A stretch of DNA of 64,000 nt from an uncultured Gammaproteobacteria bacterium (GTDB taxonomy: Bacteria; Patescibacteriota; Microgenomatia; Levybacterales; UBA12049): the NCBI GenBank assembly GCA_964637955.1, contig CAZWXQ010000002.1, positions 199,782-263,781 of the forward strand, in the 5' to 3' direction. The position numbers and the translations under genes are program-made. Position 1 is the stretch's first letter. Every line of letters starts with the position of its first letter. Positions 6,254 to 40,780 of this stretch are shown here, one piece after another. The notes below the pieces were generated by a model. That model had not been told where the DNA came from. It did no database searches and worked only from the letters and a program-made list of their open reading frames with translations.

Positions 6254-6284
6254 TAGCCTCGTAAGGCCAGGCCTTGCAAGGCTA
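6254..6284. repeat. REP-like palindromic element, diverged copy (AGCCTCGTAAGGCC-A-GGCCTTGCAAGGCT)
   Basis: One of 5 copies of the 29-nt palindrome family. One mismatch and one wobble in the stem. Lies just downstream of the holB stop. Confidence 0.7.
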
Positions 6285-6288
6285 GAGG

Positions 6289-6939
6289 TTAGATGTTTAA
6301 GAATAGGTTTTCCATTGTAAGGCGGGTGTTGGTATTTGTAGTTTTCAAATCATAATGAGCTAGCTCAAGCTTGTGAATGATTTTCCTAAGTTTTAGGGCT
6401 TTTTCTGATTTGTTATGCTGAACTTGTTTCAGCATCTCGTCCCTGGCTCCCAAGATTGATTGTTCTAAAAAATTTATTGCTTCAGTTTTTTCTTCTGAGA
6501 TTTTCGAAGCTAGATAAAGCATGCCTCCTTCTCCATCTAGTTCTAGAATCTGATTAATTGCTTCGGGGTCAATCTTAATTTCTTCTTTAATCTCAATTAT
6601 TTTTGCACGAGAAAGAATAGTCGGTAGAAAAGAATGATAATTGTTGGTAATTAAAATTATCATAGAGCTTGGGGGAGGTTCTTCGAGAAGTTTTAGCATA
6701 GCGTTTTGGGCATCAACTGTCGCGCTATTTCGCATATATATAATAGTAGATTTTTTTTCTCCTTTGAAAGGCTTTAGAAATATTGTTTTTTGAATGTTTC
6801 GTACGTCTTCAATTCCCAGGGCTTTTTCAAACTCTTTTATATCGACATCGAACTTATCAATTTTATTTTTTTTGTTAAGTTCCTGCGCTTTTTCCAGAGA
6901 TTTTTCAAAGTTGTTCGCAGAAATAATAAAGGTATTCAT
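6289..6939 (-). CDS. holB: DNA polymerase III delta-prime subunit-like clamp-loader protein (short form)
   Basis: LLKLLEEPPPSS and TILSRA motifs of clamp-loader AAA+ proteins. 216 aa. Confidence 0.55.
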   Translation of the reverse strand: MNTFIISANNFEKSLEKAQELNKKNKIDKFDVDIKEFEKALGIEDVRNIQKTIFLKPFKGEKKSTIIYMRNSATVDAQNAMLKLLEEPPPSSMIILITNNYHSFLPTILSRAKIIEIKEEIKIDPEAINQILELDGEGGMLYLASKISEEKTEAINFLEQSILGARDEMLKQVQHNKSEKALKLRKIIHKLELAHYDLKTTNTNTRLTMENLFLNI

Positions 6940-11328: not shown

Positions 11329-11886
11329 ATGTATATAGAAATGAAAAAACTTATAGACGCAATTAAAAAGGTACTTGGTTTGGATAAAAAATCAGGGGAT
11401 TCTTCTTCTGGATTCACCCTTATTGAGCTTTTAGTCGTAATAGCTGTTATTGGAATTTTAGCGGCAGCTCTTCTTGTTGCAATAGATCCTATTGATAAAG
11501 TAAGACAAGGAAATGATACAAAAGTTATAAATGATGTCAGAGCCATATATGACGGTGCAAACAGAGTTTATACTCAAACAGGTTCGTGGCCAACGGGTAC
11601 TAATCAAACTGCAATTGATAATATCGTAAATGCAAGTGAATTAAAATCTGCTCCAAAACCACCTAGTACCCCTTATGGTACTGCATATACAACGCTTGTT
11701 GCTACAGGAGGCAATGATTGGATAGCTGGTGGTATAATTTTGGCTAAAGCATCAAAGGCAAAATCAACAACAACAAATACAATCGGTGGTACTGCATGTG
11801 GTACTAATACATGTTACTTTATCGTTACAGCAGGTAAAGCATGCTACAAACCTGGGGCGCCAGTTGCTGGAGATGTCTGTCCTTAA
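11329..11886 (+). CDS. pilA: Major type IV pilin (prepilin, class III signal peptide) with long leader
   Basis: G|FTLIELLVVIAVIGILAA with E at +5. C-terminal Cys pairs. Leader of at least 24-28 aa. Confidence 0.8.
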   Translation: MYIEMKKLIDAIKKVLGLDKKSGDSSSGFTLIELLVVIAVIGILAAALLVAIDPIDKVRQGNDTKVINDVRAIYDGANRVYTQTGSWPTGTNQTAIDNIVNASELKSAPKPPSTPYGTAYTTLVATGGNDWIAGGIILAKASKAKSTTTNTIGGTACGTNTCYFIVTAGKACYKPGAPVAGDVCP

Positions 11887-20191: not shown

Positions 20192-20234
20192 AATTTATTA
20201 TATACTCTTTATGCTTAGGCTTACAATTAATGTA
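20192..20234 (-). promoter_or_regulatory. rnc promoter (TTGTAA-16/18-TATATAAT), ATG ~5 nt after -10 (leaderless)
   Basis: Near-identical to the hflX promoter at 38484-38513. Confidence 0.45.
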
Positions 20235-20293
20235 GTATGCCCTGAGCTTCATTTTGCATGATTTAGTTACAAAATGAAGCGAGAAGGGTATAC
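20235..20293. repeat. 59-nt palindromic element (GTATGCCCTGAGCTTCATTTTG..CAAAATGAAGCGAGAAGGGTATAC), copy 1 of 2
   Basis: Second copy at 38417-38475 in the same orientation relative to the downstream gene. 9-bp outer and 11-bp inner stems. Confidence 0.8.
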
Positions 20294-20294
20294 C

Positions 20295-20642
20295 TCAGCC
20301 ATTTATTATTTTGCCTAGAGCGCCGTTGATAAAAGCAGGGCTATTGTCTCCCCCGTATTCTTTTGCTAGTTCGATTGCTTCATCAACGATTACTTTTGGT
20401 GGTTCTTTTTTCGCTATTAAAAGCTCAAATGTGGCAAGTCTAAGAATAGCTAAGTCAGTTTTATTAATTTTATCTATCGGAAATTCAGGGGCTGCGGCTT
20501 TAATTTTTCCATCAATAAACTCAATGTGTGTCATTACTTCTTTTGCATCTGGACCGATTGGTTGGGTGTGGAATTCTACTTTAAAAATGTCCTCTACTAT
20601 TTTTTGTCTTTTTTTATGGCGAGGGTCAAGCGCTGTTTTCAT
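20295..20642 (-). CDS. nusB: Transcription antitermination factor NusB-like
   Basis: 115 aa. LAILRLATFELL helix typical of NusB. Confidence 0.55.
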   Translation of the reverse strand: MKTALDPRHKKRQKIVEDIFKVEFHTQPIGPDAKEVMTHIEFIDGKIKAAAPEFPIDKINKTDLAILRLATFELLIAKKEPPKVIVDEAIELAKEYGGDNSPAFINGALGKIING

Positions 20643-20943: not shown

Positions 20944-20972
20944 AGCCTCGCAAGGCCAGGCCTTGCGAGGCT
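20944..20972. repeat. REP palindrome AGCCTCGCAAGGCC-A-GGCCTTGCGAGGCT (perfect 14-bp arms), 5-prime flank of the RAYT gene
   Basis: Read directly. Flank is GATTAGCCTCG...GAGGCTG. Confidence 0.9.
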
Positions 20973-20997
20973 GACATCAAGGTGATATCGTTAGATT

Positions 20998-21666
20998 ATG
21001 CCATCGAAAAATTCAAGAAAAGAGTTTTTAGAAAATGGATATTATCATATTTACAATCGTGGTGTAGAAAAAAGAAAAATTTATCTAGATCAACAAGATT
21101 ATGCTGTCTTCCTTTCTTATCTTAAAGAATATTTGACTGAGAAAAATGAAAAAGAGCTTTATGAAATTTTAAATAATCCACAAACTTCTTATCAAGAAAA
21201 AGACAAAATATTAAAGCAAATCAGATTAAATAATTTTTATCAAGAAATAAAATTAGTCGCATATTGTCTGATGCCAAATCATTTTCATTTTTTTATAAAA
21301 CAAAATAAATATAACTCTATTTCTAAATTTATGAATTCATTATGTACGAGATATACTATGTACTTTAACAAGAAATATGATAGGGTAGGTTTTCTATATC
21401 AAGGAGTTTATAGGGCTGTTTTAATTAAAAACGAATCTCAATTTTTACAGCTTTCTCGTTATATACATAAACAGGCATTGCCTTTTCAGCCATCATCATT
21501 TAAAAGATATTTGAATCAGAATAAAACAGAGTGGATATATCCGGAGGAAGTATTATCCTATTTTTCGATCGAGCATCCAAAATTAAGTTATCAAGATTTT
21601 GTTATTGGAGAAAACGAAGAAAATATAAATTTTGCCTTAAAAGATATTATTTTGGATGATGATTAG
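20998..21666 (+). CDS. IS200-like HUH tyrosine transposase (REP-associated tyrosine transposase, RAYT)
   Basis: 222 aa. GYYHIYNRGVEKRKIY N-terminus, HUH motif LMPNHFHFFI, catalytic YIHKQ (Y-x3-Q). Flanked on both sides by identical REP palindromes. Confidence 0.75.
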   Translation: MPSKNSRKEFLENGYYHIYNRGVEKRKIYLDQQDYAVFLSYLKEYLTEKNEKELYEILNNPQTSYQEKDKILKQIRLNNFYQEIKLVAYCLMPNHFHFFIKQNKYNSISKFMNSLCTRYTMYFNKKYDRVGFLYQGVYRAVLIKNESQFLQLSRYIHKQALPFQPSSFKRYLNQNKTEWIYPEEVLSYFSIEHPKLSYQDFVIGENEENINFALKDIILDDD

Positions 21667-21692
21667 CCTCGCAAGGCCAGGCCTTGCGAGGC
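21664..21692. repeat. REP palindrome (perfect copy), 3-prime flank of RAYT; supplies the RAYT stop codon (gatTAGcctcg)
   Basis: Identical 29-nt palindrome. Same flank orientation as the 20944 copy. Confidence 0.9.
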
Positions 21693-21827
21693 TGGAGAGT
21701 CCCTTTGTCTTAAAATTTGCCTATGGGTTCCTGCAAATGCTTTTATAGTAATTAAATAAGTGTTATTATAATTAAAGAGAGCCGTGGGCCCTATATATAA
21801 TAGTGTTTTAGTAATACTACTATGGGC

Positions 21828-21855
21828 TTGACAAGTAGTAAAAAGGGTGTATAAT
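21828..21855 (+). promoter_or_regulatory. Consensus sigma70 promoter TTGACA-16-TATAAT; ATG 10 nt downstream (leaderless mRNA)
   Basis: cttgacaagtagtaaaaagggtgtataatacatttaaatATG. Confidence 0.6.
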
Positions 21856-21865
21856 ACATTTAAAT

Positions 21866-22819
21866 ATGTCAGCAGAAACACCTACACCATCTATTCAAGA
21901 AGCTACTCAAGCTCCAGTTAATTCTGGAGAAAATGTGTTGCTTTCATCTCCTGTTCTCCGCCTTTCTGAAGGTATTGTAAAAAGTCGCAGATCAAATGTA
22001 CGAAGAGCTGGAGCTTTTGCCGGCGCTGTTTTAGCAGTTGCAACTCTAGGAAGTTCGCTTAATATTGGAGGACGAGCTAACGCGCAAGGTCCTGATTATG
22101 TTCCACCATCCCCTGCTGCATCATCTGAGCCTATTCCATCTGTAGATCCAAATGGTGAAACTGCACAGGGAGAAGTTCCATGCGAACCAGAAGTAATCCC
22201 AGCAGCTCTTTTTGATCCAGCACCATCAGTAATTCCATCAACTGCACCTGAATCTTTTGCCCCATTACCTTCGGGGGGAGATTTGATTGGTGGAGATTTG
22301 GGAGGAGAAAATTGTACGGTTGCACCAGAAAAGATGCATGCAGCTTTAAATGAAATATTGGATCAAAATGACAAAGATATTAATAAAAATGTTAAGCCAA
22401 AGCAAATAAAGAAAAAGTTTAATCTACTTTGGAATGGTCAAGAGAAAACAAACAAAGAAACAGGAGAAAAAATAATAATTCCAGGCATAAAAGATAAAAT
22501 TGCTGGATATGTTGTGCCTCGTTTTGAAGATCAATCATTGTATGAATATCTATCAAACAATATTGGAGTAGCATTAGATCCCAAGACGGATAAATATAGG
22601 AGAACTGGTTATGGTAGTGATACAATAGGAATCTTGAGTTCAGCGGGGTTTTACTTGTCTGAAGAAGAATATGCACGCGTTATTGAATTTATAGATCCCT
22701 TTTATGATTATGTGGTTACTCACACAGATCCTGGTAATGAAGTTGTTGTTAAAGAATTAATGAAAGAAGCAAGCGTAAAAAGTTTAGATTTTTTCCTCTC
22801 GAAACTTATTCCGCAGTAG
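21866..22819 (+). CDS. Hypothetical secreted/membrane-anchored protein (Pro/Ser-rich linker)
   Basis: 317 aa. Hydrophobic segment AGAFAGAVLAVATLG. No family recognised. Confidence 0.45.
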   Translation: MSAETPTPSIQEATQAPVNSGENVLLSSPVLRLSEGIVKSRRSNVRRAGAFAGAVLAVATLGSSLNIGGRANAQGPDYVPPSPAASSEPIPSVDPNGETAQGEVPCEPEVIPAALFDPAPSVIPSTAPESFAPLPSGGDLIGGDLGGENCTVAPEKMHAALNEILDQNDKDINKNVKPKQIKKKFNLLWNGQEKTNKETGEKIIIPGIKDKIAGYVVPRFEDQSLYEYLSNNIGVALDPKTDKYRRTGYGSDTIGILSSAGFYLSEEEYARVIEFIDPFYDYVVTHTDPGNEVVVKELMKEASVKSLDFFLSKLIPQ

Positions 22820-26431: not shown

Positions 26432-26460
26432 AGCCTCGCAAGGCCTGGCCTTGAGAGGCT
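26432..26460. repeat. REP palindrome, diverged copy (AGCCTCGCAAGGCC-T-GGCCTTGAGAGGCT) between convergent gene ends
   Basis: One arm substitution. Located between the stop of the 957-aa gene and the recG stop. Confidence 0.7.
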
Positions 26461-38381: not shown

Positions 38382-38416
38382 AAGAGTATCATAAATATAA
38401 TTAAAGCTTAGTTAAG

Positions 38417-38475
38417 GTATACCCTTCTCGCTTCATTTTGAACAAAAATCATGCAAAATGAAGTTCAGGGCATAC
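38417..38475. repeat. 59-nt palindromic element, copy 2 of 2 (inverted relative to the 20235 copy on plus-strand coordinates)
   Basis: Its reverse complement is near-identical to 20235-20293. Sits between divergent promoters, directly upstream of the hflX promoter. Confidence 0.8.
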
Positions 38476-38483
38476 TACATTAT

Positions 38484-38513
38484 TTGTAAACCTGAGTTTA
38501 TGGAGTATATAAT
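38484..38513 (+). promoter_or_regulatory. hflX promoter TTGTAA-N16/18-TATATAAT; ATG 7 nt downstream
   Basis: Same module as the rnc promoter. Confidence 0.45.
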
Positions 38514-40403: not shown

Positions 40404-40585
40404 AATAATCACCTCCTTTCTTTTAATTTATTTGCTTTTCCGTTAGGAAAAGTTTAGTAAAATCTTATGCTATCTTTAGGTCGAATATATTTAAGTCTCT
40501 TATTGAGTACCGAATGGTACGAGATTTAGAGTTAATTATCCTAACTAATGACGGTTAGGACTTTAGTCACTTTACTTTTTTGACC

Positions 40586-40610
40586 ACAAAAAACCTCCCA
40601 TTCGGGAGGT
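40586..40610 (-). terminator. Leader terminator/attenuator ACCUCCC-GAAU-GGGAGGU plus U6, ~180 nt upstream of the 40403 start
   Basis: Plus strand reads acaaaaaacctcccattcgggaggt. An upstream P1 hairpin ACUUCC-UUUAAC-GGGAGGU could pair alternatively with the terminator 5-prime arm. Confidence 0.55.
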
Positions 40611-40695
40611 CAGTGACCTGTTATTTTACAACAGCACCTTACCTCCCGTTAAAGGAAGTAAAGTAAAAATATACTGCTGTTCTAATCATGGATTT

Positions 40696-40724
40696 ATAAT
40701 AGCAAAATTATCATAAACTTTCAA
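40696..40724 (-). promoter_or_regulatory. Promoter TTGAAA-17-TATTAT for the 40403 leader
   Basis: Minus-strand TTGAAAgtttatgataattttgcTATTAT. Confidence 0.45.
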
Positions 40725-40751
40725 TTAAAACCTGTTAGCCTCGATTAGCCT

Positions 40752-40780
40752 CGCAAGGCCAGGCCTTGCGAGGCTGGAGT
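40752..40780. repeat. REP palindrome (perfect copy) with partial duplication of its 5-prime flank (tagcctcgaTTAGCCTCG)
   Basis: Read directly. Lies 42 nt downstream of the truncated greA stop. Confidence 0.9.

Follow-up and report, generated by a model that had tools for sequence, protein, structure and literature searches.

Repetitive extragenic palindromes (REPs) number in the hundreds in Escherichia coli. The cognate REP-associated tyrosine transposase (RAYT), TnpA_REP or YafM, is encoded by a single-copy HUH/Y1 gene flanked by GC-rich REPs (REP/BIME sequences; BIME, bacterial interspersed mosaic element), which are also dispersed at gene ends (Ton-Hoang 2012, cited in Quentin 2018; Messing 2012, PMC3479197; structure 4ER8). 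Such an arrangement is termed a REPtron by Ton-Hoang and Quentin. Here we describe a comparable arrangement in a 64,000-nt stretch of contig CAZWXQ010000002.1 (assembly GCA_964637955.1, positions 199,782–263,781, forward strand; GTDB lineage Patescibacteriota, Levybacterales, UBA12049), hereafter termed the window, in which an earlier note had proposed a REP/RAYT unit. A gene for a Y1-type HUH transposase homolog lies between two identical palindromes, and further copies of the palindrome are located just past other genes. By analogy with the E. coli system, we consider it likely that a domesticated, single-copy RAYT-like Y1 enzyme binds and cuts a cognate single-stranded DNA (ssDNA) hairpin, thereby seeding or maintaining it at tens of gene-end sites.

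The Y1 gene occupies positions 20998–21666 of the plus strand and encodes, from an ATG start, a protein of 222 aa. Its assignment as a RAYT-like Y1 HUH transposase homolog draws on the open reading frame (ORF), Pfam, sequence alignment, an AlphaFold2 (AF2) model and Foldseek. The translation contains the segments YYHIYNRG, PNHFHFF and RYIHKQ, in agreement with the motifs YHIYNRG, NHFHFF and YIHKQ of the earlier note. A perfect palindrome, AGCCTCGCAAGGCC-A-GGCCTTGCGAGGCT, is present on either side of the gene. The 5′ copy (20944–20972, plus strand) is 29 nt long with a 13-bp GC-rich stem and a 3-nt loop, and it ends 25 nt from the ATG. The 3′ copy (21665–21693, plus strand) is identical in sequence and orientation, and both copies are bordered by GATT on the 5′ side and by G on the 3′ side. 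The TAG stop codon of the Y1 gene spans 21664–21666, and two of its three bases, the AG, lie within the 3′ palindrome. Both the bracketing palindromes and the supply of the stop codon by the 3′ copy had thus been recognized correctly, while the end of the element had been placed at 21692, one base short. The hairpin–gene–hairpin unit measures approximately 754 bp. The GC content of the ORF is 25.6%, as compared with 35.9% for the window, and GC-richness is confined to the palindromes; the description of the whole element as GC-rich was therefore mistaken.

Five palindrome sites with at most three mismatches occur in the window, as opposed to none in 100 dinucleotide-preserving shuffles. As ssDNA, the perfect copies fold into a 13-bp stem with energies of −17 to −18 kcal/mol (z approximately −7), and the 5′ flanking copy reaches −18.4 kcal/mol (z −7.7). 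Inspection of the sequence suggests a Shine-Dalgarno-like AAGGTGA at 20979–20985 (plus strand), 12 nt from the ATG. No convincing plus-strand promoter was found between the 5′ hairpin and the ATG, and therefore the 5′ hairpin probably lies within, or at the start of, the Y1 transcript. Rfam yielded no match at the window palindromes. Each palindrome arm is itself nearly palindromic (CCTCGCAAGG / CCTTGCGAGG, CCTYGCRAGG), with a perfect form, CCTTGCAAGG, in the related locus L001 (3841–3867). Clear mini-hairpin doublets, AAGGTCTGACCTT-TCA-AAGGTCAGACCTT, are seen in some relatives (the upstream hairpins of L107 and L101). This arm-within-palindrome design constitutes a two-level palindrome resembling a miniature REPIN (REP doublet) or a tandem dimer-binding site.

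The three further copies reported earlier are present at gene ends, two of them diverged, although two of their starts required correction from 6254 and 40752 to 6255 and 40747; the third, 26432, was correct. The copy at 6255–6283 (plus strand) carries two mismatches and is located 5 nt past the stop codon of holB (6289–6939, minus strand). The copy at 26432–26460, to which no strand is assigned, has T as its central base and one or two mismatches, and it lies between the convergent 3′ ends of recG and the gene for a 957-aa protein. Both of these diverged copies fold more weakly than the perfect ones. The copy at 40747–40775 (plus strand) is perfect, is situated 47 nt past a greA-like gene, and has the same GATT...GGAG flanks as the 3′ copy of the Y1 gene. 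Immediately upstream of it, the foot and 5′ arm are partially duplicated in tandem (TTAGCCTCG, 40735–40746), which extends the feature to 40735–40775. No other GC-rich repeat family was found in the window. Tandem partial duplications of foot and arm adjoin full hairpins in relatives as well as in the window: TTAGCCTCG runs into ATTAGCCTCG at the site just described, GATAAATAGCTTTGCAGGGG occurs twice just past the Y1 stop codon in L004, and GCGAGGCTA joined to GCAAGGCTA follows the 3′ hairpin in L011. These duplications may have been left by slippage or by faulty cleavage and joining.

All solo copies in the window sit just past the 3′ end of a gene, one of them between convergent genes. Such positions would suit host regulatory elements, namely terminators, stabilizers of mRNA 3′ ends or sites for a binding protein, with the Y1 gene lying incidentally between two of them. 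The near-palindromic arms, as expected for a dimer-binding site in double-stranded DNA, and the conservation of copies at orthologous sites described below also accord with this possibility. None of the solo palindromes in the window is followed by a T-run, however, and canonical terminators exist separately in the genome, with one located downstream of the 40747 copy. The comparative evidence below speaks further against an incidental association of gene and palindrome.

The protein belongs to the Y1 transposases according to Pfam, the comparison proposed in the earlier note: Y1_Tnp (PF01797) matches aa 81–159 with 46 bits, against a cut-off of 23. The sole NCBIfam model that matches it at E < 0.01 is REP_Tyr_transpos, which is likewise matched by seven distant relatives at 35–49 bits. 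His95 and His97 (the predicted HUH motif), Tyr155 (the predicted catalytic tyrosine), His157, and Gln159 (a predicted metal ligand) are invariant across an alignment of 35 homologs. A PDB sequence search with the single protein returned no match, and a profile search gave a marginal match to ISDra2 TnpA (E = 0.7) with the HUH and Y...Q motifs aligned. Since sequence searches of the PDB were at most marginal, a comparison of folds was needed. The confident AF2 model (pLDDT, the predicted local distance difference test, 85.6; pTM, the predicted template modeling score, 0.82) displays the HUH β–α core with a helical insert at approximately aa 48–80, whose helix pair covers about aa 51–76, and a helical C-terminal tail (aa 168–214). 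Foldseek ranked 4ER8_A, the E. coli RAYT with a REP hairpin, first among PDB entries (E 1.5e-4, probability 1.0, TM 0.62 on the target), with a sequence identity of just 11%. The next matches were the IS608, ISDra2 and IS200 TnpA structures (2A6O, 2FYX, 2XQC and 2F4F), and Thg1 chains appeared at ranks 3 and 6. Based on the model and the alignment, the enzyme looks catalytically competent, and its predicted fold is nearest to that of a RAYT, yet it falls outside the curated RAYT equivalog.

The correspondence with the E. coli REPtron thus comprises a Y1 gene between cognate GC-rich palindromes, the dispersal of these palindromes at gene ends and the nearest known fold. As for canonical REPs, which are extragenic palindromes of 20–40 nt in hundreds of copies, the length and the position agree, but the copy number is only in the tens per genome by extrapolation. 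The differences are distinct as well. The 4ER8 chain has 165 residues, whereas the window protein has 222 aa with an extra helical insert and a C-terminal tail; the Y motif is YIHYNP in E. coli and YIHKQA here; the hairpin foot is GTAG there and YTAG here. The flanking copies form inverted, imperfect pairs in E. coli but are direct and perfect in the window, and the dispersed copies amount to tens by extrapolation rather than to hundreds.

At least 7,926 relatives of the window protein were found among 90%-identity clusters. An exhaustive search yielded 183 clusters at 50% identity with E ≤ 1e-30, and approximately 15,000 with E ≤ 1e-3. The closest relatives are 62–72% identical, all are about 220–235 aa long, and all named ones are from Patescibacteria (Levybacteria, "Patescibacteria group"). 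In loci taken from public assemblies, homologs with 65% identity in unrelated neighborhoods have a related hairpin on each side in direct orientation, and the 3′ copy again provides the TAG stop codon. We surveyed hairpins around 78 non-redundant complete Y1 genes (37–70% identity), with 498 other ORFs of the same loci as controls. A GC-containing hairpin was present within 150 nt upstream of 63% of the Y1 genes and 19% of the control ORFs, and at or just past the stop codon of 72% and 21%, respectively. Matching hairpins on both sides were observed for 44% of the Y1 genes, compared with 0.2% of the controls, and for 32% of the 78 genes a hairpin contains or directly adjoins the stop codon. 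The foot consensus derived from 39 copies is YT/AG...CT/AR, with the window copies reading GATT/AG. The hairpin sequence itself varies by lineage, for instance CCTGCAGGGCCAGGCCCTGCAGG, CCTGCGAGGAGACTCCTCGCAGG and ACTTAGAGGATCAACCCCTAAGT, and its divergence follows that of the protein (Mantel rho 0.28, 0 of 999 permutations). The shared flanking hairpins and their lineage-specific co-divergence provide strong comparative evidence that the Y1 protein and the hairpin form a functional pair; both features count against a host element that merely happens to flank the gene. Furthermore, every metagenome-assembled genome (MAG) with several copies of the palindrome also has the ORF, and the equal abundance in its absence, named by the earlier note as the mark of a pure terminator family, was not seen. 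In related MAGs (L005–L032; e.g., L014 at 2364, L011 at 5763 and L025 at 7932), the 29-nt palindrome often lies within a larger frame, CCTATAA-N4-hairpin-N4-TTATAGG, and TTATA(G) is enriched on the 3′ side at +5 to +10. This outer motif is missing from the window copies.

Many relatives additionally carry the hairpin of their own lineage within the Y1 coding sequence, where two positions recur. The first, at approximately nt +146–177, precedes the HUH motif, and the second, at approximately nt +435–483, directly follows the catalytic helix; several genes have both, and examples are found in L053, L065, L074, L088, L092 and L079. In L065, the same hairpin encodes LQGQALQ in one position and PAGPGPAG in the other. 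This use of different frames indicates that the conserved entity is the nucleic-acid hairpin and not the peptide. Both sites fall on surface loops of the AF2 model. The window gene has a hairpin at neither place, and its clade has an AT-rich helical insert at the first one. In the lineages of L073, L050 and L042, the peptide is kept and the DNA hairpin has decayed. We rejected the idea that in-gene hairpins are a new phenomenon, since in-frame REP insertions in tnpA_REP genes are already known for TnpA_Y1 subclass 2.4 (Quentin et al. 2018), albeit at other positions. Hairpins within the coding sequences of relatives, in different frames, are likewise difficult to reconcile with host regulatory palindromes around an incidental Y1 gene, and we regard that explanation as highly improbable.

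Among the described TnpA_Y1 groups, subclass 2.4 (Bertels group 4; Cyanobacteria and Bacteroidetes) offers several parallels, judged from its published description. It shares the NH[IFV]H form of the HUH motif with the window family (NHFH in the window), "double foot" long palindromes consisting of a foot and its reverse complement (TAG...CTA here), in-frame REPs within the tnpA_REP gene, as in many relatives here, and low flanking 16-mer counts (approximately 14), which are low here too. The in-gene copies of subclass 2.4 lie after the HUH motif but ahead of the Y motif, whereas those of the present family precede the former and follow the latter. Subclass 2.4 also has WQ and YIxNNP, in contrast to [YF]Q and YIHKQA in the window protein, and the foot here is not GT[AG]G. 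Genes of subclass 2.6 and class 3 are bordered by secondary structures termed "atypical" (Quentin 2018). Their REPtron-like layout, with non-GTAG hairpins also present at other genomic sites, is seen here as well, and class 3, described as intermediate between insertion sequence (IS) and REPtron, has a Q-containing Y motif (Quentin 2018). Subclass 2.6 (Bacteroidetes; YIH[QN]NP) and class 3 (Planctomycetes and Acidobacteria; Y----Q) differ from this family in phylum, motif details and length. Judging by sequence, the family resembles subclasses 2.4 and 2.6 and class 3 without matching the signature of any of them, and it is most likely an undescribed class-2-like TnpA_Y1 subclass. A literature search for RAYT or REP in Patescibacteria, also known as the Candidate Phyla Radiation (CPR), returned no relevant paper; its coverage was incomplete, and it is weak evidence of novelty. 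Overall, we class the system as one that works like REP/RAYT, and the protein as a member of the TnpA_Y1 superfamily that belongs neither to the curated RAYT equivalog nor to IS200.

A scan of one genome per species with a slightly degenerate palindrome detected it in seven MAGs. Three related MAGs contain 14, 11 and 6 copies, and the fetched loci of each include a single Y1 gene, which is flanked by hairpins. Solo copies amount to 28 in 665 kb of Y1-centered loci, or about one per 24 kb, from which the copy number is extrapolated to tens per genome. This number is in line with the range for RAYT groups 1 and 4 and not with that for groups 2 and 3, reported as 12–14 and 57–140, respectively (Bertels 2017).

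The layout of the locus also evokes an autonomous, minimal IS200-type IS, in which the whole 750-bp unit would be mobile and the solo hairpins would be left over from recombination between its ends, or would be miniature derivatives. Like IS200/IS608, the locus combines a Y1 HUH fold and a Y---Q motif with same-strand hairpins at both ends of a compact unit of about 0.7 kb. The Y---Q motif of the window clade is that of class 1, to which IS200 TnpA belongs (motif table of Quentin 2018), the gene occurs in differing neighborhoods in distant lineages, and the flanks of the 40747 solo copy are those that recombination between left end (LE) and right end (RE) would be expected to leave. Other observations are at odds with mobility. 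The NCBIfam IS200 model (NF033573, transpos_IS200) reaches 15 bits where 55 are required. IS200 elements have on average 4.8 copies with 99% identity (Quentin 2018), differ between their left and right ends and frequently reside on plasmids. In contrast, the Y1 gene is present once in the 64-kb window and once per locus or MAG, and no duplicates above 95% identity were detected, in keeping with single-copy RAYTs (Bertels 2017). Paralogs were found in two of approximately 80 loci, at 61% and 79% identity, and in L052 each of them has a separate hairpin type, a pattern already described in RAYTs. Both ends consist of the same perfect palindrome instead of distinct imperfect LE and RE hairpins. 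No tnpB partner, frequent in IS200/IS605 elements, was found in the window. A scan of viral contigs contained no relatives, and plasmid relatives are just 23–29% identical, so that the family is effectively absent from plasmids. In the single block that is syntenic with the window (L007), identities are 49–72% for host proteins, and the Y1 protein of that MAG is 70% identical. Among three MAGs, synteny extends to the Y1 locus itself, with 69–78% identity for the Y1 protein and 63–87% for its neighbors. Divergence comparable to that of host genes, together with this synteny, fits vertical inheritance of the Y1 gene. Since the solo hairpins are also conserved at orthologous sites, unlike decaying remnants, we deem an autonomous IS improbable.

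Most solo copies in related MAGs occupy orthologous places. The orthologous hairpins are identical at 27–29 of 29 positions, with differences mainly at the central loop base, while their 80-nt flanks are only about 60–75% identical and contain gaps. This near-identity amid drifting flanks indicates that the solo hairpins are long-lived and either selected or homogenized. Evidence of turnover in the form of copies at non-orthologous sites had been expected and was not borne out. Reading orientation from the central loop base (A or T) was also rejected, given that this is the very position at which orthologous copies differ; the orientation of the flanking copies is accordingly only weakly defined. 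The persistence of few, near-perfect solo copies at orthologous positions, the absence of any recent insertion event from the copies observed, and the large size and strong conservation of the family in genomes of about 1 Mb would all accord with a domesticated Y1 nuclease that serves the host, for example in processing or repairing extruded hairpins at replication forks or in homogenizing fixed sites, without producing new copies or acting selfishly. Sequence alone does not separate such a nuclease from the RAYT-like enzyme favored above. However, no copy is present in L007 at the place orthologous to that of the window copy past holB, which indicates that sites are gained or lost over longer times, and we consider a purely host-serving nuclease unlikely. 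A broader proposal, possible though rather doubtful in our view, is that a Patescibacteria-wide, vertically inherited and domesticated Y1 nuclease, representing a distinct TnpA_Y1 subclass, curates its hairpin sequence-perfect at a few fixed sites and, in many lineages, also inside its own coding sequence, where two permissive loops accept it in different frames.

For the favored explanation, a RAYT-like enzyme acting on its cognate hairpin, the following mechanism can be proposed. When the DNA is single-stranded, as on the lagging-strand template, the palindrome of 29–33 nt would extrude as a hairpin, and the Y1 protein would recognize the stem–loop together with the foot (YTAG...CTAR). Cleavage beside the hairpin would proceed through Tyr155, with a metal ion held by His95, His97 and Gln159, and the strand would then be rejoined. 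This cut-and-rejoin activity may seed hairpins at gene 3′ ends, homogenize them, or both, maintaining a few tens per genome of about 1 Mb. The Y1 gene itself would no longer be mobile, and its flanking copies would represent resident master copies. These copies probably also affect Y1 expression, through a hairpin in the 5′ leader and a 3′ end that defines the stop codon.

Several observations weigh against this explanation. Binding, cleavage and mobilization of the hairpin are proposed by analogy with E. coli TnpA_REP. The window protein scores 38 bits against the cut-off of 80 for the curated RAYT equivalog (NF047646, REP_Tyr_transpos), and the RAYT assignment of the earlier note therefore stands at the level of fold, with 4ER8 as the nearest structure, and fails at that of the equivalog. 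Its Y motif, YIHKQA, is not the Y---NP of class 2, although relatives at 40–50% identity display the class 2 motif YIHRNP. The canonical REP foot GT[AG]G is absent from the hairpins. The copies flanking the window gene are direct and not inverted; among the 34 Y1 genes flanked on either side by one and the same hairpin, 26 have direct, six inverted and two ambiguous orientations, and this predominance of direct copies is a trait of IS200/IS605 ends that also favors the IS explanation. REPIN doublets, that is, inverted pairs, were sought in the window and not found. Consequently, the earlier proposal of a REP/REPIN–RAYT signature holds for cognate REP-like palindromes accompanying a Y1 gene, and not for REPINs. 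The copy number, in the tens, is low, and the orthologous placement of solo copies attests to long persistence and not to demonstrable recent movement. Finally, the single-copy status of the gene refers to the window and the fetched loci, not to whole genomes.

Additional features were noted in and around the window. A perfect sigma-70 consensus promoter (TTGACA-16-TATAAT, 12 of 12 positions) at 21828–21855 precedes a gene at 21866 for a 317-aa protein without a Pfam match, indicating that transcription of this gene does not depend on the Y1 unit. On the minus strand at 40585–40724, in the interval separating ppa from the 40747 palindrome, a promoter-like TTGAAA-17-TATTAT with TG is followed about 100 nt on by a canonical intrinsic terminator, GACCTCCCGAATGGGAGGTT-TTTTG. 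A small RNA or a small protein may be encoded here; Rfam gave no match to the segment at the gathering threshold. A repeat of approximately 100 nt, with 89% identity between its two copies, is present on opposite strands at 20197–20295 and 38415–38513, both intergenic (rnc–nusB and upstream of an hflX-like GTPase gene, respectively). It folds as a long conserved hairpin with 27 predicted pairs and variation mostly in the loop, and it may act as a small RNA or have a regulatory role; Rfam returned no family for it apart from a sub-threshold chance miRNA hit. A repeated 40-nt segment at 11410, 13094, 13564 and 14629 encodes a prepilin-type N-terminus, G-F-T-L-I-E-L-L, at the starts of four neighboring genes, indicating that type IV pilin or pseudopilin genes are clustered here. 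Several MAGs with the palindrome and the Y1 gene (L005–L032) are labeled "uncultured Gammaproteobacteria bacterium". Their Y1 proteins, together with the CAZMGC syntenic block, match the Patescibacteria-like window at 49–72% protein identity, and these labels are probably wrong.

REP/RAYT systems are understood mainly from Proteobacteria. Patescibacteria have genomes of about 1 Mb in which dispensable DNA is scarce, yet a very large Y1 family resides there, with genes that are now labeled just "transposase" or left nameless. A gene as conserved as housekeeping genes, accompanied by a few stable, conserved hairpins, argues for a host-level or mutualistic role. With one enzyme and approximately 10–40 sites, it offers a tractable system for asking why RAYTs persist. 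If the hairpins are indeed curated by a Patescibacteria-wide nuclease, they would be host-useful elements or an autoregulatory device instead of selfish repeats, and the family would represent a cleaner mutualism between REP/RAYT and host than the proteobacterial cases, in minimal genomes.

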